Part shown: piece by piece, positions 1 to 7,682 of the stretch
Numbering within the stretch: position 1 is the first letter of the stretch
Layout: every line of letters begins with the position of its first letter
Virus record (IMG/VR): IMGVR_UViG_2695420859_000007
Coordinates: 1-7,682 of that record
Reading direction: 5' to 3' (one strand)
Source: a virus
Lineage: Duplodnaviria; Heunggongvirae; Uroviricota; Caudoviricetes
Length of the DNA stretch: 7,682 nt
Translations under genes and position numbers: made by a program
The notes under the pieces: generated by a model
Seen by the model: only the letters and a program-made list of their open reading frames with translations
The model's database searches: none
Told to the model about the DNA's origin: nothing

Positions 1-206
1 AGTGATAAACATCCGGCTTCTTCCACCATCGCACCGGACAGGCGACTATGAGGGGACAACGCCGCGCTCCGTTAACGCGGTAAACCCCGGTGTGTATCGT
101 TTTTGATTATCCCCGCACACTCGCGCAGAGGAGTCTCCCTGTCGGGCTGCGGTCTCTGTTAATGCAGGAATACGGCGACAATACCGCGCATGGATAATAA
201 GGTCGC

Positions 207-431
207 TCAACACACTGGCTGTAATGCAGCGGATACCATGCGGCATTTAGCGGCATTCATCGTACACTCCACGGTTAGCTCTTCATTCGTGGCATTCACC
301 TGAAAGGTCCGGGAGTGTAATTGCGTACATTTACCACTGAACGAACCTTCAACAAGAACACGACCACGCTGCAAAATACGGAACGGAATTGTTCCCTGAA
401 AAGGTTCTACGGTTACCCGTAATTTCTTCAT
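207..431 (-). CDS. Hypothetical 74-aa protein, translationally coupled to Rz
   Basis: Its ATG overlaps the Rz stop (ATGA), and GGAGGA lies 4 nt upstream. Translates as [74 protein letters not shown], with four Cys. I do not recognise it, and it is not Bor-like. Confidence 0.45.
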
Positions 432-922
432 GTATCCTCCGGATAATAAAAAGCCAGCTTAGTGCACTGAGTGCGGATATATTCCTGCGCCCCTTCCAGC
501 TGCTTCTGCATTGTCATCAACCGTTCTCTGAGGATGAAATAATCCCGTTCAGCGGTGTCTGCCAGTCGGGGGCCGGTTGCATTATCCACGCTGGAGGTGC
601 CGGTGGCTTCACGCACGGTACCGGAGCAGGTGGCGTTGATCCGCAGGCGCTTACGACCAGCGGCAACATCAGCGCGCAGAGTTTCATTTTCAGCTCTCGC
701 ATCGGCTAATTCCTTCGTGTATCTGGCATCAAGTGCAGCAACATCACGCTGGCGCTGCTGCATATCAGTAATGGTTGCATTTGCCTGCTCCAGCTCACTG
801 ACTTTTTTATCGCGCTGCTCTTTGTAGGTTATGGCGTTATCACGGTAATGATTCAGCCCCAGACTAAGCACACCACAGGCTACCAGCAGGACAATAATCA
901 CCACACACAGAACACGGTTCAT
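428..922 (-). CDS. Rz: Spanin inner-membrane subunit Rz (i-spanin)
   Basis: From the ATG at 922: [39 protein letters not shown]...[17 protein letters not shown]...[18 protein letters not shown], closely matching lambda Rz. SD GGTGGTGA upstream. The track's GTG start at 1006 is a spurious 5' extension. Confidence 0.9.
517..702 (-). CDS. Rz1: Spanin outer-membrane lipoprotein subunit Rz1 (o-spanin), embedded in the +1 frame of Rz
   Basis: [22 protein letters not shown]... with a lipobox (VSAC) and a Pro-rich body ([27 protein letters not shown]) matching lambda Rz1. Confidence 0.85.
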
Positions 923-923
923 A

Positions 924-1010
924 TCACCACCAACGGATTGCCCAGACCAGAACAGCAATGGCCACAATACGAATAGCAAATGCCATTGCCCGAATAAGTT
1001 CAGCACTCAT
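924..1010 (-). CDS. Small hydrophobic ORF-3 (28 aa), ending 1 nt before the Rz ATG
   Basis: Translates as [28 protein letters not shown]. It shares the motif RA[LM]AFAI[KR].VA[VI] with ORF-2. It sits in a third frame and may be a frameshifted fragment. Confidence 0.25.
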
Positions 1011-1021
1011 CTTTTTAAAGT

Positions 1022-1144
1022 TCACGATTTCAGCGCAATGACCAGTTTTGCCAGCCCATACAGCATCGGAGACACAGCAATACCAACAGCCACCCACTTA
1101 ATAGCAAAAGCCAGCGCTCTGCTGATGTCATCAGTCACTGTCAC
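1022..1144 (-). CDS. Small hydrophobic ORF-2 (about 40 codons, GTG start overlapping the ORF-1 stop)
   Basis: GTGA overlap with the ORF-1 stop. Translates as (M)TVTDDISRALAFAIKWVAVGIAVSPMLYGLAKLVIALKS*. It is the C-terminal part of track ORF 1022..1294. Confidence 0.3.
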   Translation of the reverse strand: MTVTDDISRALAFAIKWVAVGIAVSPMLYGLAKLVIALKS

Positions 1145-1272
1145 CCCAGCAGCCCCGACGAAGACAACATCACCCAGGCGAGGGACAGAAAAAGAGCAAC
1201 CAGCATTAGTGAAAATGAAATACCGACAATCACACACAGGACCTTTGCCGGCGTTATGAGTTTGTCTGACAT
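1141..1272 (-). CDS. Small hydrophobic ORF-1 (42 aa), single predicted TM
   Basis: ATG at 1272 preceded by a strong SD (AAGGGG, 5-nt spacer). Translates as MSDKLITPAKVLCVIVGISFSLMLVALFLSLAWVMLSSGLLG*. Absent from the ORF track because it is short. Confidence 0.4.
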   Translation of the reverse strand: MSDKLITPAKVLCVIVGISFSLMLVALFLSLAWVMLSSSGLLG

Positions 1273-1439
1273 AGCTACCCCTTAATTGCCACAATTAACT
1301 GGGATACTACCCATAAAAAAGGGATGCTCCAGACCAGCAAAAATTTCCAGTTTGGTAATTGACTAATCATGAGTCGCAACTCCCTAATCAGTTTGCTAAA
1401 ATCAATCAAGGCAGCCTCCCATAGCTTACTGCCATAAAA

Positions 1440-1476
1440 ACAAAACCCCGCTTGCTGCCAACAAACGGGGTTTTTA
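1440..1476. terminator. Hairpin with flanking A- and T-tracts (potentially bidirectional intrinsic terminator) downstream of R
   Basis: Plus strand AAAACCCCGcTTG-CTGCCAA-CAAaCGGGGTTTTT. On the minus strand it lies about 90 nt after the R stop. Confidence 0.5.
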
Positions 1477-1564
1477 CTTTTATTCACTTACGTTTCGCCA
1501 GTTCGCAGGATTTCGTGTTATCCGTCCGCCTTGGCCAACGTCATTTATTAGCAAAATATTCTGC

Positions 1565-2098
1565 TTATCTGTCGATTCCCCAGCACGCCAGCGCGCTCTC
1601 CTGGTCACGACGGGATACCTGACCGTAACAGTTATTTGAGCGAATACGGCAGTCTCTGCCACCGTCCTTAATCCACCAGCGAATCGCCTCACATGCTCCC
1701 CTGCGATCACCAGCATTAATTCGTCTGTAAAACGTCGACGGGAAACACTTACCGGGACCAATGTTGTACGGACAGAATGACGCGATCCCCGCTTTCTGGG
1801 GTTCGGTCAATGGCACTTTGATGTTTTTCTCCACCCATGCCAGCGCCTTATCACGTTCGATGGCGTTAACCTGGTCGCATTTCTCCTTCGACAACTTCAT
1901 GCCCGGGACGACAGGTTTACCATCCACCAGAATGGCACCGCGACAGATGGTCCAGATACCCGCGCCATCACGGTATGCCGTGGTGTGGTTACCTTCCTTT
2001 TCATCCAGAAACTGGTCGAGAATGTCAGGCGCAGGCGCACCAGCGGCAATCAGCGCCAGAACGGCAGCCGACAGGCCGTATTTGATTTTGGTGTTCAT
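1565..2098 (-). CDS. R: SAR endolysin, GH24 T4-lysozyme-like muramidase (Stx-phage R type)
   Basis: 177 aa. The N-terminal Ala/Gly-rich weakly hydrophobic segment (YGLSAAVLALIAAGAPA) is typical of a signal-anchor-release domain. The catalytic spacing E-x8-D-x5-T sits in EGNHTTAYRDGAGIWT. The rest matches lambdoid and Stx-phage lysozymes. Confidence 0.9.
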   Translation of the reverse strand: MNTKIKYGLSAAVLALIAAGAPAPDILDQFLDEKEGNHTTAYRDGAGIWTICRGAILVDGKPVVPGMKLSKEKCDQVNAIERDKALAWVEKNIKVPLTEPQKAGIASFCPYNIGPGKCFPSTFYRRINAGDRRGACEAIRWWIKDGGRDCRIRSNNCYGQVSRRDQESALACWGIDR

Positions 2099-2134
2099 GG
2101 ATATATTAAATATTCAGCCGCTGTCCCTGGCCCA

Positions 2135-3124
2135 CTAAATACGCACTTTAAGATAAGTCAGCCCCGGATGAAGCCAGTAAGCCGGCACTTTTTTAAAAGG
2201 TGGAGTATTAAAATCACGAAGAAGAGCCTCCCGCACAATTGCATCCTTATCAGCACCACTGGCCAGCGCTTCAATCTCAGCGGCTACCTGAAGATATCCC
2301 ATGCAACGGCCCACGCGCTTCATCAGCCCCTGCTTTTTATTGTTCTTCAGGTAATCAATGGCAAATTCAATGAGCTCCTCACTGTGCTGGTGCGATGGAG
2401 GTGTTACTTTCCCATTTTCTGAGATGGTTATTTTCCCGGCATCACCGGATACAACAAAGGATGGCCGGTTACACTCCCATTCCAGCTCACTGAAATTATC
2501 ATTATGAATACTGAAACACTCTGCGAGATTTCTGCTCATCACTTTCCGGCAATAATCGTAAAACGCAGCAAACTGCTCATCGCGGCGTTTTTTTTCAGGC
2601 TGCTGAAGATGCTCTTTCAACCATGAAGCGCAGCTTAGATTCGCCGCGCGATCAGGAATAGCTTCTTTCATTTCGTCTGCTGCAAGCACCTCATTTTTTG
2701 TTGGGGTGCTTTTTTTCAATTCAGCGATATAGCACTCCAGTTTTTCAATACGCGATTCAACATCATCTTTTTCTGACCGCAGTGTTGACGGCGGCATCTT
2801 CAGAGAACAAGTAATTCTTCCCGGTAGCTTTCCTTTGTAGGTTATCAATACATCCTGCGCATCTAAAATTACGGGGCGCTTTTCCGGTGACGGTTCATCC
2901 CCTTCGCATAACCCGGCAACAATATCCATGAAAAACTGCTTCGCCTGTTTTTTCGCCTCAGCTTCGTAGAACTCCAGCGTGGCACCTTCAGTACGGTCAA
3001 GACTAATCGCCACATCTGGCAACAACAGTGACGGATACCCACCAATTTCCAGTGCCACAGTAACAGTAATCTTATCCGGGTAATTATTTATCCCTTTAAC
3101 ACCCAGTTCGTATTTTTTCTTCAT
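2135..3124 (-). CDS. Hypothetical protein, 329 aa, moron inserted between holin and endolysin; function unknown
   Basis: Long uninterrupted ORF on the operon strand. Its ATG lies 4 nt after the holin stop, with GGGGAG about 7 nt upstream. No signal peptide or TM segment. It has a charged, helical central region (SRIEKLECYIAELKK...EKKRRDEQFAAFYDY). I found no Walker, HNH or other motif I can trust. The DNA looks more AT-rich than the flanking lysis genes by eye. Confidence 0.7.
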   Translation of the reverse strand: MKKKYELGVKGINNYPDKITVTVALEIGGYPSLLLPDVAISLDRTEGATLEFYEAEAKKQAKQFFMDIVAGLCEGDEPSPEKRPVILDAQDVLITYKGKLPGRITCSLKMPPSTLRSEKDDVESRIEKLECYIAELKKSTPTKNEVLAADEMKEAIPDRAANLSCASWLKEHLQQPEKKRRDEQFAAFYDYCRKVMSRNLAECFSIHNDNFSELEWECNRPSFVVSGDAGKITISENGKVTPPSHQHSEELIEFAIDYLKNNKKQGLMKRVGRCMGYLQVAAEIEALASGADKDAIVREALLRDFNTPPFKKVPAYWLHPGLTYLKVRI

Positions 3125-3128
3125 CGCT

Positions 3129-3335
3129 TTACTCCCCCCGCGCCGCCTTACGACGGTCCTCCCTGATTTTGAAATACAGGTTAGTCAGATACGTCAGCAG
3201 GCCAAACAGCAGACTTCCCAGCACACCTATTGCCACCCACTGGGACGGAGAGACTTTGTCCAGCAGCTGCAGTAACCAGTATCCCGTCCCCACCGCTGAC
3301 GTGGTGTATGACACACCTGTTGTGATTTTTTCCAT
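3129..3335 (-). CDS. S: Holin, phage-21 S21-type pinholin (class II, two TM domains)
   Basis: 68 aa, [68 protein letters not shown]. This is near-identical in pattern to S21 (..[52 protein letters not shown]). Confidence 0.85.
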
Positions 3336-3380
3336 CTGATGTATGTCTCCGTCACCGCCGACAGAAAATGAAAGTAAAGA

Positions 3381-3416
3381 AAAACAAAAAAGCCGCCAGT
3401 GTCACCCACTGACGGC
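3381..3416 (-). terminator. Rho-independent terminator between nanS-p and the holin gene (minus-strand orientation)
   Basis: Minus strand GCCGTCAG-TGGGTGACA-CTGGCGGC followed by TTTTTTGTTTTT: an 8-bp stem with one G-U pair. Confidence 0.5.
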
Positions 3417-3580
3417 CAACTCCGGGAGCCGTGATTATGGCATTCAGGCTCTGCTAAAAATGCCAGATAACATTCCGGCCTCCCCTGATTCAGGTTATAA
3501 ATGACACAATATCTTGACAACATCCGTCACTATCTGTCAGAAAATGTACTGCCAGATATAAGTATCATGTGAAGTACATC

Positions 3581-3617
3581 TACCCGTTTTAGCCAGCGTC
3601 CTTCAGAGTGGGCGCTG
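3581..3617 (+). terminator. Rho-independent terminator oriented for the plus strand, abutting the nanS-p 3' end
   Basis: Plus strand AGCCAGCGtCC-TTCAGAGT-GGgCGCTGGCT followed by TTTTTTT. The minus-strand reading has no U-tract after the hairpin. Confidence 0.45.
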
Positions 3618-3627
3618 GCTTTTTTTA

Positions 3628-5412
3628 TTATGCTGCGGGTGCATTTATCTCCAGCACCAGACTTTCTATCTCAACGCCATACGCTGCATTTTTTGTAACA
3701 TCCGTCAGCGTCAGCGCATTCAGTCCCAGTGTCAGACTGTCTTTTATAACCTGGAATGCCGGGCCAGCCACTCCATTCAGTTTCGGAGTAACCGTGGCAC
3801 TGCCGGCGGTGAACACCAGCTCCAGCGTCTGCCAGTCGTTACCGTAATCGCCGAACTCCCCCAGCTTCGTGTTTCCGGCTTTCCTGTGATGCATCAGATT
3901 CACTCTGCCGTCAGTGGTCTGAGTGAAGTACGACATCAGGAACGGATTACCGGTACCCGTCATCGCCACACCATCAGGAACGGGAGCATCCGTATACAGA
4001 TAAATCCCCAGCCCGAACTGATTGTTGGTCAGTGCGCCTGACAGGCGGAACTTACAGGTCAGTCTGCCGCCCTGTGTCAGCAGGGTAATTGCGTCATCCA
4101 CCGGATGCGTCAGGGACCAGGTTTTATTGCTCTGCTTGGTGATCTTAAATACACCATCTGACAACTGAATTCCGCCATCCTTAATGCTCCAGCCCTGCGC
4201 AGCAGCCTCTCCGGCTGCCGGCAGCAGGGAGATTGTGCGAACGGACGTATCTGCAGACGGACCCGATGGCGTGTTGCCGCCGGGCGAGGGTTTGATTTCC
4301 GGTGCCTTACCACTGATGAAGGCTGAGGTGCGCCCGGCTGCGTTCAGAATAGCGGTTGCCAGACGATCCGGAATAATGCTCCTGCGCGCCCATGAACTGA
4401 AATGTGTCGGGCGGTTTGATGATACCTGGTTTCCATTCGTTCTCGATGCCGCACCGTAATATCCTGATGCCGGAATATCCGGATCTTCTGCCGGCGCGTT
4501 AGTGGCGGTATTGACACCGTTACCGTCTGTCATGAAGGGCACAAAATAAACGCCCTCACTCTCCCTGTTTTTATACCCGCCGTACACGGTGTCGTAACTG
4601 CCACCATGGCACTGCGCGTTAAACACGGAGAGGTCAGCACGAAACTGTGTCAGCATGGCTGTAAACAGCGCAGGTTGCTGTGCGTGGGTGGCGGCGCTCA
4701 TGTCAAACTCACCCTGCATCCAGCAGACGGCCAGCAGAACGTTTTTGGGATTTTTCTGCAATGCCGCTTTTGTGCGGGAAATCAGATCCTGATATAACGG
4801 CTTGCCCACCCCCCAGCGTGCCGAATCCTGACTGGCCCCCGTGGACTCGCTGAATGTCCCCTCCGCGCCCTGGGTAAATGCCGAACCACCACGACAGCAT
4901 GGTACCAGCAGGATCCCCGCGTTATTCGGGATATACGGGAGCAGTTTTTTGGCAATATGTAAACCCTGGCCGACACAGCCGTACTGCCCTTTGCTCAGGT
5001 CAGCCCTCGGATGATTCAGCGTACTCATATCCTGCACATCATGCAGACAGTGGTCAGCCGGAATAATATCGTTATATCTGCAGGCAGCCCCGCCCGGCGT
5101 CACTGTACTGCGGCGCGCCAGCTGTTTAATGCGCGGATCCGGAGCATCGTATGAATCCGGCAGCGGAAGCCCTTCACCGTAAGCCATGGCATTGGACTGC
5201 CCGGCCAGTACGATGACGTAGTACCACTCCGGCTCAGTTGCACCACTGACCACCACATCACCTTCTGCTGTAATCGCCTGCATCAGGGTATAAGGGGTTA
5301 TGGCCACCGGACTACCAAACGGCTGCCAGCCCTCTTTCAGTTTGTGTGTCAGCTTTTCCGCAAGGTCTGACGGCGACGCCGCCCTGACAACATCATAATG
5401 TTTAAATGTCAT
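3628..5412 (-). CDS. nanS-p: Prophage-encoded 9-O-acetyl-sialic acid esterase NanS-p (SGNH/DUF303-type esterase with a C-terminal lectin-like domain)
   Basis: 594 aa. The N-terminus MTFKHYDVVRAASPSDLAEKL and the esterase motif LAGQSNAM match the YjhS/NanS-p proteins found downstream of stx in Stx phages, as I recall them. The start has a good SD (GGGAGGA). Its position immediately upstream of S is the usual one. Confidence 0.85.
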   Translation of the reverse strand: MTFKHYDVVRAASPSDLAEKLTHKLKEGWQPFGSPVAITPYTLMQAITAEGDVVVSGATEPEWYYVIVLAGQSNAMAYGEGLPLPDSYDAPDPRIKQLARRSTVTPGGAACRYNDIIPADHCLHDVQDMSTLNHPRADLSKGQYGCVGQGLHIAKKLLPYIPNNAGILLVPCCRGGSAFTQGAEGTFSESTGASQDSARWGVGKPLYQDLISRTKAALQKNPKNVLLAVCWMQGEFDMSAATHAQQPALFTAMLTQFRADLSVFNAQCHGGSYDTVYGGYKNRESEGVYFVPFMTDGNGVNTATNAPAEDPDIPASGYYGAASRTNGNQVSSNRPTHFSSWARRSIIPDRLATAILNAAGRTSAFISGKAPEIKPSPGGNTPSGPSADTSVRTISLLPAAGEAAAQGWSIKDGGIQLSDGVFKITKQSNKTWSLTHPVDDAITLLTQGGRLTCKFRLSGALTNNQFGLGIYLYTDAPVPDGVAMTGTGNPFLMSYFTQTTDGRVNLMHHRKAGNTKLGEFGDYGNDWQTLELVFTAGSATVTPKLNGVAGPAFQVIKDSLTLGLNALTLTDVTKNAAYGVEIESLVLEINAPAA

Positions 5413-5444
5413 TATTCCTCCCGGCCGGGATAGTGTATTAAATC

Positions 5445-5491
5445 AGATATGGAGTGGGCTGTAGTCCGGAAGCCTGAATGACACACGGGGA
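5445..5491. repeat. Perfect 12-13 bp inverted repeat with 21-nt spacer in the nanS-p upstream region
   Basis: GGGCTGTAGTCC (5446..5457) and GGACTACAGCCC (5479..5490) are exact reverse complements. The repeat lies about 35-80 nt upstream of the nanS-p ATG and has no U-tract on either side. Confidence 0.6.
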
Positions 5492-5595
5492 CTACAGCCC
5501 AAGAAATGAAAAAAGGCCACGCAGTTGCGCAGCCTGATAAACCCTGGTTAAAATCCACACGATAACAACACAACAATATCAGTATCTCATGCTAT

Positions 5596-5621
5596 TGCCC
5601 GAACCCATTCGGGCATTTTTT
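5596..5621 (+). terminator. Rho-independent terminator (plus-strand orientation), convergent with the one at 5628..5651
   Basis: Plus strand TGCCCGAA-CCCA-TTCGGGCA followed by TTTTTT. Confidence 0.5.
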
Positions 5622-5627
5622 ACCCAT

Positions 5628-5651
5628 AAAAAAGCCCCTCCGGAGAGGGGC
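5628..5651 (-). terminator. Rho-independent terminator (minus-strand orientation)
   Basis: Minus strand GCCCCTC-TCCG-GAGGGGC followed by TTTTTTAT: a 7-bp GC-rich stem, 4-nt loop and U-tract. Confidence 0.55.
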
Positions 5652-5818
5652 ATGTTTGCATGCACATTCTTTTTCTTGCATGGTGCCGGGTGCCTCCCGG
5701 TGAATTCAGTATCAGCACCTGAATCCGCGATTATCACATATACCTGGTTGCTGATTGCCCCTCCGCACAGGGGGATTCACCATGCAGTAGTATTTTTAAT
5801 AAACAGTAAACAAAAAAA

Positions 5819-5986
5819 TCAAGCATTATGCAGGCTGTTTCTTTTTATCACCGGCCACAGCAATACCACAATGCCGCAGACCAGCACCCCATCCGCCAGC
5901 ACCGACATGATTCTGCTGGTGAAATCCACCATCACCACCAGAAACAGCAGGAGTGCAGCCACAGCCAGGCGCAGTTTTACCGTCAC
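5819..5986 (-). CDS. Small hydrophobic ORF (55 codons from GTG; possible internal ATG starts), two predicted TM segments
   Basis: Its GTG overlaps the TerB-remnant stop (GTGA). It translates as VTVKLRLAVAALLLFLVVMVDFTSRIMSVLADGVLVCGIVVLLWPVIKRNSLHNA*. There is no strong SD, so it could be a chance ORF. Confidence 0.2.
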   Translation of the reverse strand: MTVKLRLAVAALLLFLVVMVDFTSRIMSVLADGVLVCGIVVLLWPVIKRNSLHNA

Positions 5987-6443
5987 TGGTGATTCTCCAG
6001 ACGAAGACCCAGAACACCGGCAATCTCTTCCAGCACCTTGCGCTCTTCCGGCTCAATTTCGCCGTCTGCCTCCGCAATGGCCACCGCCACATCCAGCACA
6101 TCTTCCGCTTCACGCGTATCGTGTTTCACATCCTCGATCTCACGTAACGCCGCACGACGACCAATTTTAAAGTTCGTATCCAGCTGACCGATAATGGTTG
6201 CGCTAATCGCATTAATTTCTGACGTAAACGCGGACAGCGCAGGCTGATTACGCAGTACCTGTTCGATCTTCGCTTTCTAGGAAGCCTCACATTCACCATC
6301 TGCACAGGCCACCAGGTAGGCAGCATTAATAACCGCCTGTGCCAGATCGCGTTTCTCAAACTTTCCTTTTTCCGGTTAACGTGACACACCAATAACTCTT
6401 GTCGAAAAAGCCAGCAAGCTGAAAGACCGGTATTCACAACCAC
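5983..6443 (-). pseudogene. TerB-family (tellurite-resistance TerB-like) gene remnant, disrupted by an in-frame TAG and at least one frameshift
   Basis: The C-terminal ~97 codons are intact (KAKIEQVLRNQPALSAF...LDVAVAIAEADGEIEPEERKVLEEIAGVLGLRLENHQ*) and show the two TerB-like 'hydrophobic-ADGE' repeats. Upstream the frame is broken by TAG (plus-strand ctag near 6278), a TAA, and a frame change in the run ggaaaaaggaaag. The ORF track splits it into out-of-frame ORFs 6126..6443 and 5826..6113. Confidence 0.5.
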
Positions 6444-6480
6444 CAGCGCGTTTACTGTACTGGCGTGATTTCAGTCATAA

Positions 6481-6507
6481 AAAAACCCGCCTGGCGACGG
6501 GTGTAAA
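6481..6507 (-). terminator. Candidate tR'-like intrinsic terminator downstream of pR'
   Basis: Minus strand ACCCG-TCGCCAGG-CGGGT followed by TTTTTTT, about 45 nt downstream of the putative start. The stem is only 5 bp, so this is a modest terminator. Confidence 0.4.
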
Positions 6508-6529
6508 AAATCTTCTAACGTCAGGCATA

Positions 6530-6577
6530 AAACGCCCATCGTTAGGGCAAATTTACCACAGATTCGGGAAAAATCAA
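6530..6577 (-). promoter_or_regulatory. pR'-like late promoter with qut-like element
   Basis: Minus strand just after the Q stop reads TTGATT-(16 nt)-TAAATTTGCCCTAACGATGGGCG. This closely resembles lambda pR' (TTGACT...GGTAAATTTGACTCAACGATGGGTTAA), including the -10 TAAATT and the ACGATGGG start region. Confidence 0.6.
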
Positions 6578-6582
6578 CAAAG

Positions 6583-7404
6583 CTATCTGGTCACCTTTTT
6601 CAGTTGTTGTTCTGCCCATGCTTCTTCAATATCAAACTGCACCACCAGCGTATCGTAAAAACGTTTAACTGTTTTTTTCCATGTATCAAGAGATATGGCA
6701 TCGGTTACATTACATATGGCATTAAATGCCTCCGTTGAAGGTAATCTTTCATAGCCACGACCACCACAACGCTGGCAGTCTCTGATAACAGGCATACCAC
6801 GTTTTACCGACTCTTCACGATGAATGGCAACACCTCGCCCACGACAATCTTTACAGGCGGTGGAAACCTCCCCCTTCCCTCCACACTCCGGACAGGCAAC
6901 TTTTACCACCTCCCTGACTTTTTTCCATTCCTCCCAGTAAGACGGATACACGCCTTTTGTGCACTTTGCCCACACTGGCGGCTTACCATCCGGATACTGG
7001 ATCTTGTTTGTAAAAACCTCGCTTTCAATAAATTTTTTTCCGTGACAACAGGGGCACTGTTTTTTGCTCGCCGCGCTACGGGCATAATCTTCAAACGCAT
7101 ACGAAGCCATAATACGCATCACTGCCGGTTTTATTTCTGCCGGGAGTTTTCTTAACGCCGCCACGCGATCACACCGACTGAGTGCATATTCTGTCAGCAA
7201 TTCTGTTGCCCGCTCTCTGTCATTCATACTAATGCCCATTTTCCCAAGGAACGCAGAAAACCCCATCTCAGCCCAATTCTGTGTCATGCCCTGCGCAGCC
7301 ATCACATCAGTGATACTCAGCGTATCTTTCGACGTTGAGGCCGATGCATCAGTCAGGCCGGGGGATTTTGGGGAGTAGTATTTCGGTAAATCTTCCAGTT
7401 TCAT
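6583..7404 (-). CDS. Q: Late-gene antiterminator Q (lambda Q family, carrying an extra Cys-rich insertion)
   Basis: 273 aa. The N-terminus (MKLEDLPKYYSPKSPG...TDVMAAQGM) and C-terminus (YDTLVVQ...KKVTR) line up with lambda Q as I remember it. It has four CxxCxGxG motifs (CPCCHGKK, CPECGGKG, CKDCRGRG, CQRCGGRG). It sits directly downstream of rusA and upstream of a lambda pR'-like promoter. Confidence 0.8.
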   Translation of the reverse strand: MKLEDLPKYYSPKSPGLTDASASTSKDTLSITDVMAAQGMTQNWAEMGFSAFLGKMGISMNDRERATELLTEYALSRCDRVAALRKLPAEIKPAVMRIMASYAFEDYARSAASKKQCPCCHGKKFIESEVFTNKIQYPDGKPPVWAKCTKGVYPSYWEEWKKVREVVKVACPECGGKGEVSTACKDCRGRGVAIHREESVKRGMPVIRDCQRCGGRGYERLPSTEAFNAICNVTDAISLDTWKKTVKRFYDTLVVQFDIEEAWAEQQLKKVTR

Positions 7405-7682
7405 TTTTTGACCTGCCCTTCAAGCATTATGGGGTAAATCTTCACCCCCAGACGTCCACCAGATACTGGCTGAGCACGAACGATATTGATTTCATCAAAC
7501 TGCTCATCGTCCATTAGCAACCCCGCATGCGTCAGCGCATCCAGCGGCGCTTTCAGAATATTGTCCAAGTCACGGCGGCGCTTATCCGGTGGCTCGGCAA
7601 TAATCTTTATCGCCAGCCTTCCGGACAGGCTTAATTTCAGCCGCTGCTGGCGAACAATAAGCGCCACAGCCCGGCGATAACG
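7401..7682 (-). CDS. rusA: Holliday-junction resolvase RusA, partial (N-terminus lies beyond the window end)
   Basis: The translation contains the RusA signature PDKRRRDLDN...DALTHAG...DDEQ. The reading frame stays open to the window edge, so the GTG at 7667 in the ORF track is not the true start. Its stop overlaps the Q start (ATGA), the lambdoid rusA-Q arrangement. Confidence 0.75.
   Translation of the reverse strand, partial: RYRRAVALIVRQQRLKLSLSGRLAIKIIAEPPDKRRRDLDNILKAPLDALTHAGLLMDDEQFDEINIVRAQPVSGGRLGVKIYPIMLEGQVKK

Follow-up and report, generated by a model that had tools for sequence, protein, structure and literature searches.

A covarying hairpin and a second terminator-like hairpin in the leader of nanS-p in a lambdoid prophage

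Results

Genes and features of the late region

The DNA that we studied, which we call the window, is a stretch of 7,682 nucleotides from a tailed phage (Caudoviricetes; positions 1 to 7,682 of IMG/VR record IMGVR_UViG_2695420859_000007). It is the late region of a lambdoid prophage. Every protein-coding gene in the window is on the minus strand. Read along that strand, the order is RusA (7401-7667), the antiterminator Q (6583-7404; Pfam Antiterm), a TerB-family (TciA-like) pseudogene (5983-6443), a DUF3927 gene (5819-5986), an STnc100-family small RNA (sRNA), the sRNA AgvB (which is on the plus strand), nanS-p (3628-5412; Pfam DUF1737, SASA, and DUF6645), and a class II holin gene (3129-3335), and then DUF1327, lysozyme, and Rz. 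The pseudogene, which lies between Q and the STnc100-family sRNA, appears in the window as two open reading frames (6126-6443 and 5826-6113), and it has an internal stop according to an identical RefSeq locus. The window has no tRNA genes, although these are found in Stx phages.

Our main subject is the 400 nt of untranslated sequence between the DUF3927 gene and nanS-p. The first gene 3' of this leader is nanS-p itself, which encodes a sialate O-acetylesterase (named "SASA family carbohydrate esterase" in RefSeq), while RefSeq records leave the 400 nt blank. Of the E. coli records for chromosomes or plasmids, 620 contain the 418-nt leader at 99% identity or above, and a partial match occurs in 2858 of 5426 genomes. 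The surroundings are rich in terminator-like sites: there are 9 of these between positions 5000 and 7682, as compared to 2.3 expected.

Directly after the stop codon of Q, on the minus strand, we see by eye a promoter-like sequence (TTGATT-16-TAAATT), together with two terminator-like hairpins (6549..6533 and 6502..6485, with T7). Judging from its sequence, this region (6485-6575) is probably the tR' region of the prophage along with its pR' promoter. The leader RNA from here would probably be very short and would correspond to StxS or to the 6S RNA of lambda. Such pR'-tR' leader RNAs (i.e., StxS of Stx phages) are made from the late strand and end at an intrinsic terminator that is read through by Q-modified polymerase (PMC7547250).

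Two other places in the window caught our attention. The intergenic region between nanS-p and the holin gene (3336-3627) looks like another case of convergent terminators: on the plus strand, one (3591-3620, then T7) abuts the stop codon of nanS-p, and minus-strand terminators (3479..3462 and 3417..3391, with T5) lie just 5' of the holin gene. No Rfam family matches 3336-3627 at E of 1 or below; in related prophages, PasA, PasC, or Esr41-type sRNAs have been reported from this slot. Also, within the lysis cassette and 3' of the lysozyme gene, there is a long terminator-like hairpin on the minus strand (1442-1474), which reads AAAACCCCGTTTGTTGG-CAG-CAAGCGGGGTTTT (15 pairs) and is followed by GTTTTTAT.

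AgvB and its promoter

Positions 5560-5621 of the plus strand are AgvB, an anti-GcvB sponge sRNA of the EcOnc01 family, including its intrinsic terminator. The Rfam model RF02702 matches over its full length (1-62 of 62 positions) with a score of 96.5 bits (gathering score 56; E = 2e-18), and the window's copy is identical in sequence to the family consensus. The 5' part of AgvB, CGATAACAACACAACAATATC (5560-5580), contains CACAACA, the target motif of GcvB R1. The terminator has the form of an intrinsic terminator, with a stem (5596-5603 and 5608-5615) and then TTTTTT (5616-5621). The setting is that of AgvB in EHEC O157 as well, in the same position and orientation: in a lambdoid prophage, 3' of Q and pR', on the strand opposite to the late operon, convergent with another sRNA, and just upstream of nanS-p. 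A sub-threshold match to AsxR (43 bits) overlaps AgvB in the window. AsxR (EcOnc02; RF02703; Sp5/933W) and EcOnc03 (from Sp9) have the locus in common with the window's AgvB, as well as a 3' domain that is about 42 nt long, but the variable 5' regions that recognize targets differ, and the window has the AgvB type rather than the FnrS-targeting AsxR type.

AgvB was discovered by Tree et al. in 2014 in E. coli O157 Sakai, as EcOnc01a and EcOnc01b of the prophages Sp10 and Sp17 (PMC4104026). Both of these prophages have the same leader as the window. Its primary 5' end was mapped by RLM-RACE, it gives a northern band of about 60 nt, and its 5' region, which has the CACAACA motif, relieves the repression of dppA by pairing with the R1 seed of GcvB (PMC4104026). 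AgvB aids the growth of EHEC in bovine rectal mucus; Hfq binding, expression, and the antagonism of GcvB are known from the Sakai copies only (PMC4104026). The same study described convergent sRNAs between moron genes and nanS-p, and its example of such a pair from a Stx2 phage is AsxR (EcOnc02) with EcOnc27 (PMC4104026).

An earlier note on this DNA, made from the sequence alone, had argued that the plus-strand terminator implies a plus-strand transcript, which was possibly a small RNA that starts near TTGCGC-(17 nt)-TAAAAT. There is such an RNA, namely AgvB, which is already published, and it starts just downstream of these two boxes. The probable AgvB promoter is at 5525-5554 on the plus strand, with a -35 of TTGCGC (5525-5530) and a -10 of TAAAAT (5549-5554), and the spacer is 18 nt instead of the 17 nt given in the note. 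The two boxes fit the mapped 5' end of AgvB because the -10 ends 5 nt before the first base, as defined by Rfam and by RACE. The -35 is weak, as it has just 3 of the 6 consensus positions, and because of this a simple scan for promoter consensus sequences did not list the pair. TTGCGCA (or TGCGCAA if read on the minus strand) is invariant in all 28 of the leader variants that we aligned (see below). From its sequence and location, the run of A at 5509-5514, upstream of the promoter, may have a role like that of an UP element.

Where other sRNAs replace AgvB, this layout is kept. The AgvB slot of variant classes C and E to G holds a different short convergent sRNA-like gene, whose promoter is TTGCGC-18-TATTAT. 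For example, the gene at 1283-1350 of locus L026 has the terminator GCCCGCGTCTCCCAGCGCGGGC and then T7, and the gene at 6343-6440 of locus L144 has the terminator CCGCTCTTCCCAGGAGCGG and then T8. Neither of these matches any Rfam family at the gathering score.

The STnc100-family sRNA

The second sRNA (5811..5622, minus strand) belongs to the STnc100 family, which makes it a relative of EcOnc27 of the Stx2 phage Sp5 and of PasD. RF02076 matches over its full length (1-206 of 206 positions) with 147.8 bits (gathering score 47; E = 1e-33). Its 3' end has the form of an intrinsic terminator on the minus strand (stem 5651..5634, then TTTTTT at 5633..5628). The two Rfam models abut at 5621/5622, and the facing stems of their terminators are 18 nt apart. 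The earlier note was correct to describe two strong terminators that face each other. They are back to back because AgvB is transcribed towards STnc100 and stops at its own terminator. Upstream of STnc100, at about 5832-5803, we see by eye a promoter-like sequence (TTGATT-18-TAAAAA). We considered whether STnc100 might be a second unit like that of pR', as the regions upstream of both include TTGATTTTT...TAAA, and we set this idea aside; the resemblance was noticed by eye only.

Published relatives of this sRNA occur in similar places. Downstream of stx2B, the STnc100 prediction and EcOnc27 overlap (PMC12711010), and EcOnc27 appears on northern blots at about 235 and 247 nt, and PasD lies directly upstream of a sialate esterase gene (Zhu, Shabalina and Storz 2026). 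As with EcOnc27/sRNA103 of Stx2 phages and PasD1/PasD2 of EPEC, the window's copy is on the strand of the late genes, its terminator abuts that of the anti-sRNA, and it is directly upstream of the esterase gene. The window's copy is preceded by the TerB pseudogene and the DUF3927 gene, whereas EcOnc27 is preceded by stx2B. In phage 933W, a member of the STnc100 family (207.7 bits) is in the same position, between stx2B and nanS-p, along with AsxR (88 bits), and the order is STnc100, AsxR, t2, hairpin, and nanS-p (t2 and the hairpin are described below). In 9 of 9 other diverse loci from IMG/VR, STnc100 shares a strand with nanS-p, and the hairpin follows 100-170 nt downstream of it. One locus (L174) has two tandem copies of STnc100 (9123-9334 and 9396-9609) upstream of a single nanS-p leader.

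A second terminator on the late strand

Past AgvB, on the way to nanS-p, the late strand has another intrinsic-terminator-like hairpin, which the earlier note had missed and which we call t2 (5503..5535, minus strand). Its stem (5535..5514) is followed by UUUUUCAUUUC, and the segment from 5535 to 5508 has the features that we required of an intrinsic terminator. t2 is conserved in the 28 leader variants: helix 1 is paired in 84.4% of cells of the alignment, and the inner six pairs are mostly kept via G-C/G-U changes, while the outer two are unpaired in 13 of the 28. t2 is also present in loci that lack AgvB.

We noticed that the loop and the 3' arm of t2 also carry the -35 box of AgvB, as the invariant TGCGCAA of the loop reads TTGCGCA on the other strand. 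Similarly, the U run of t2 reads as a run of A on that strand, at -51 to -46 with respect to the AgvB promoter. From the sequence, a single stretch of DNA seems to serve both strands, as t2 and as the AgvB promoter, which looks like dual coding.

A conserved hairpin before nanS-p

Between t2 and nanS-p is the element that the earlier note had described as an exact inverted repeat of 12-13 bp, with a 21-nt spacer and no U-tract. This description holds: the arms (5455-5467 and 5489-5501) are 13 nt each, are 100% complementary, and have 21 nt between them, so that on the minus strand (5455..5501) they form a perfect 13-bp stem with an A-poor 21-nt loop. The window contains two overlapping perfect 12-mer inverted repeats within 40 nt, as compared to a mean of 0.06 in 200 shuffles. 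No T/U run follows the inverted repeat on either strand, and given also the 21-nt loop, it does not qualify as an intrinsic terminator. No Rfam family matches 5455-5501 at E up to 1.

To compare leaders, we gathered them in two ways, from relatives of the N terminus of nanS-p and by an exact scan for the conserved ribosome-binding sequence. We dereplicated the set and aligned 28 distinct variants. The earlier note had staked its claim on the conservation of the inverted repeat in related prophages, and the hairpin is present in the 28 variants, upstream of nanS-p in both Stx and non-Stx prophages. In the majority of relatives, the stem is 14 bp long and is interrupted by U·U mismatches at one or two internal places, and the loop is 11-27 nt. 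That the stem is perfect in the window's variant class is happenstance.

The pairing is maintained while the sequence changes. Across the 28 variants, the lower helix of the hairpin is paired in 93.7% of cells and the upper helix in 81%, with U·U mismatches that recur at two positions, and the covariance search that the note had recommended turned up double compensatory changes at 6 of the 14 pairs. If the hairpin and t2 are taken together, 86.8% of cells are paired, as compared to 33-42% with a slid partner; 8 of 22 pairs have double changes; and none of 500 shuffles reaches the observed covariation score. Furthermore, RNAalifold predicts the same hairpin stem independently. We ran a covariance model for the hairpin (R1) on 100 loci (860 kb of phage contigs), of which 96 gave one copy each, and on the window, which also has a single copy; a model-based alignment of these 96 matches has the same pairing statistics. 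With both alignments considered, 87% of cells of the hairpin are paired, as compared to 33-44% with a slid partner. Since there is exactly one copy per locus, we rejected the idea that the hairpin is a dispersed repeat.

The diverged variants also indicate which strand matters. The note had proposed folding both strands, and these variants fold much better on the nanS-p strand than on the other: -29.6 vs. -19.9 kcal/mol for variant B, -22.6 vs. -6.0 for E2, and -19.8 vs. -2.5 for E3. They fold well only on the nanS-p strand because many of the substitutions are G·U pairs, which work on that strand only. These most diverged variants (B, E2, and E3) restore all 14 pairs. Across variants, the loop is A-poor and U/C-rich. 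Because of the covariation and the one-strand-only G·U pairs, the comparison of sequences points to an RNA hairpin in the late transcript, and it speaks against a plus-strand RNA as well as a DNA operator.

The hairpin is not found everywhere that nanS is. In a wider search for homologues with one genome per species, which yielded 12 loci, those of E. albertii and Proteus and the chromosomal nanS loci lacked the hairpin, so its taxonomic spread is narrow. Also, some alleles of nanS-p have an unrelated upstream region without STnc100, the anti-sRNA, t2, or the hairpin. This implies that the hairpin is not required for the expression of nanS-p and that it belongs to the sRNA/leader module. Finally, variant A3 looks like the result of a crossover inside the 5' arm of the hairpin, and the conservation of the arms could be due in part to recombination between modules.

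The start of nanS-p

The ribosome-binding region of nanS-p (5416..5429, minus strand) has the Shine-Dalgarno sequence GGGAGGA (5422..5416), which is preceded by the palindrome CCCGGCCGGG (5420-5429); the palindrome is conserved in 27 of the 28 leader variants. RNAalifold predicts a mini-hairpin of 4 bp (UCCC/GGGA) that covers the start of the Shine-Dalgarno sequence, and we saw no covariation at this mini-hairpin across the 28 variants. A scan of the sequence from t2 to the start codon did not identify any sigma-70-like promoter for nanS-p.

We considered a pseudoknot between the hairpin's loop and the Shine-Dalgarno sequence (CUUCCGG with CCGGGAG), and rejected it: across 7 variant classes, the energies were no better than for shuffled loops (the fraction of shuffles that were at least as good was 0.17-0.81), and loops did not prefer their own leader over a foreign one.

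There is also an open reading frame of 54 codons (5412-5576, minus strand) that begins with TTG and spans the antisense of AgvB, t2, and the hairpin, and its stop codon overlaps the ATG of nanS-p (TAATG). This overlap is present in the A and B variant types only, as types C to G have TTCATG, and the frame is shifted by indels in the loop and in the T run. It is probably not coding.

Discussion

Along the late strand, the leader consists of an STnc100-family sRNA with its terminator, the antisense of AgvB, t2, the stem-loop, and the ribosome-binding site of nanS-p. We think it quite likely that this interval is the "convergent sRNA" module that is found in the late operon of many E. coli lambdoid prophages, both Stx and non-Stx, between the morons and nanS-p. 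The convergent terminators, and the plus-strand sRNA with its promoter, are already known, the convergent sRNAs having been published in 2014, and the window has ordinary members of both sRNA families. We did not find a description of the hairpin or of t2 in a limited search of the literature. The covarying hairpin and the second terminator directly before nanS-p are a modest addition to a known module.

What does this leader do? According to the earlier note, the minus-strand terminator is what would stop unmodified late transcription before nanS-p and the lysis genes. If so, then this hairpin would block unmodified transcription from pR', and the leader as a whole would be a regulatory leader dedicated to nanS-p. 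The hairpin is indeed a good intrinsic terminator on the late strand, it is upstream of nanS-p and the lysis genes, and a polymerase that reaches it without antitermination should largely stop. But it is the 3' end of a full-length match to STnc100, and it is far from where tR' should be, which is directly after Q, as the first terminator after pR' and qut. Q ends at 6583, the tR'-like sites directly follow the probable pR', and the STnc100 terminator is about 850 nt downstream of these, with the TerB pseudogene and the DUF3927 gene in between. Similarly, the same element of 933W follows stx2B and is a long way from that phage's annotated pR', qut, and terminators. Lambda 6S RNA and StxS do resemble the window's minus-strand RNA in that they are short, are from the late strand, and end at an intrinsic terminator, but they start at pR' directly after Q, and the window's RNA belongs to another family. 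(dRNA-seq and Term-seq data for Sakai have been published; PMC7547250.) We consider it improbable that this terminator is the main block; it can add a further barrier, as can t2, but no more than that.

The note had also allowed the inverted repeat to be either an operator or an RNA stem, and only the second of these options fits what we found. As an operator, it would bind a dimeric regulator of the AgvB promoter, relative to which it lies at -105 to -59, or else of a nanS-p promoter. The window's copy does form a perfect dyad, it lies upstream of the promoter of AgvB, and its arms are more conserved than its spacer, as such an operator's would be. A dyad operator should keep its half-site spacing and its symmetry among homologues, and this one keeps neither: the spacer varies from 11 to 27 nt, which changes both the half-site spacing and the helical phase, and the pairing is kept in variants where the dyad symmetry has been lost, as G·U pairs are A·C mismatches on the other strand. 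Double compensatory changes at 6 of the 14 pairs also argue for RNA, and for nanS-p the scan left no promoter to regulate. It would be very surprising to us if the repeat were an operator.

If the element acts as RNA, it might still have no function now. It could be a hitch-hiking relic, such as a decayed terminator, with arms that persist as homology for the exchange of modules among lambdoid phages. Mosaic variants with a crossover in or next to the 5' arm (i.e., A3) would be expected in this case, as would the stem mismatches in many variants and the nanS-p alleles that lack the element altogether. But the double changes that compensate for each other, and the G·U pairs that work on one strand only, are signs that RNA pairing is under selection, and it is hard to see why a relic would have all 14 pairs restored in its most diverged variants. 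We view a relic as unlikely. Another idea, about which we are doubtful without dismissing it, is that the hairpin is a specific regulatory site, as opposed to a passive stabilizer: a site of cleavage by RNase III, a site where a phage or host protein or Hfq binds and thereby sets the translation of nanS-p and the lysis genes, or else a signal for pausing or attenuation. The structure is kept while the sequence changes, the loop is consistently A-poor and U/C-rich, and the U·U mismatches recur at the same two positions of the stem, all of which would suit a specific site of this sort. Also, the perfect antisense of AgvB lies about 60 nt upstream in the late transcript, and their pairing could make a substrate for RNase III. 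On the other hand, the hairpin has no known motif or Rfam match, the pairing of its loop with the Shine-Dalgarno sequence is no better than for shuffled loops, its stem is short for RNase III, and as it lacks a U tract, it is not an intrinsic terminator.

The role that seems most likely to us for the hairpin, albeit with low confidence, is as a determinant of the processing or the stability of the mRNA for nanS-p and lysis. In lambdoid phages, polymerase that starts at pR' and has been modified by Q reads through intrinsic terminators. Lysogens express homologues of both AgvB and STnc100 (EcOnc27), and the host's GcvB is sponged by AgvB (PMC4104026); by analogy, we infer that the window's copies of AgvB and STnc100 are expressed as well. 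In a lysogen, both sRNAs would then be made and AgvB would sponge GcvB. At the same time, the STnc100 terminator and t2 would form a double barrier that keeps transcription from downstream of tR', which would start at moron promoters or at the STnc100 promoter, from reaching nanS-p, the holin gene, and the lysis genes. Upon induction, Q-modified polymerase from pR' would pass all of these terminators. The late transcript would carry a perfect antisense to AgvB, and the inverted repeat would act as RNA within it. Between t2 and the hairpin, the linker (5502-5513) is U-rich and single-stranded and looks like a typical site for RNase E or Hfq. A cut there would leave the hairpin at the 5' end, where it would shield the mRNA for nanS-p and lysis.

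We tentatively suggest something more specific, while recognizing that it may well be wrong: that the late operon has a cis-acting RNA element, not described so far, which is made up of the hairpin and t2 and which might set how much nanS-p and lysis mRNA survives, for example by way of a processed and protected 5' end, with cleavage that is maybe triggered by the pairing of an AgvB- or AsxR-type antisense RNA. The hairpin and t2 are common to Stx1, Stx2, and non-Stx prophages.

Stem-loops that stabilize mRNAs from a 5' untranslated region or from between cistrons are known, such as the 5' hairpin of ompA and the REP-type hairpins. Like these, the window's element is a stable stem-loop in untranslated mRNA with A/U-rich single-stranded RNA before it. 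It is not related to them in sequence, and there is a single copy per prophage, rather than a repeated element.

This locus matters for several reasons. AgvB and its relatives allow prophages to reprogram the sRNA networks of their hosts, and variants of STnc100/EcOnc27 downstream of stx2 have a statistical link to the risk of HUS. For annotation, there are two sRNA genes in a stretch that RefSeq leaves blank, and hundreds of E. coli genomes have the covarying hairpin and t2. If the hairpin controls the processing or stability of the mRNA that runs from nanS-p through the holin gene to lysis, and if the hairpin and t2 do form such an element, then it would influence the timing of lysis and the release of Shiga toxin.
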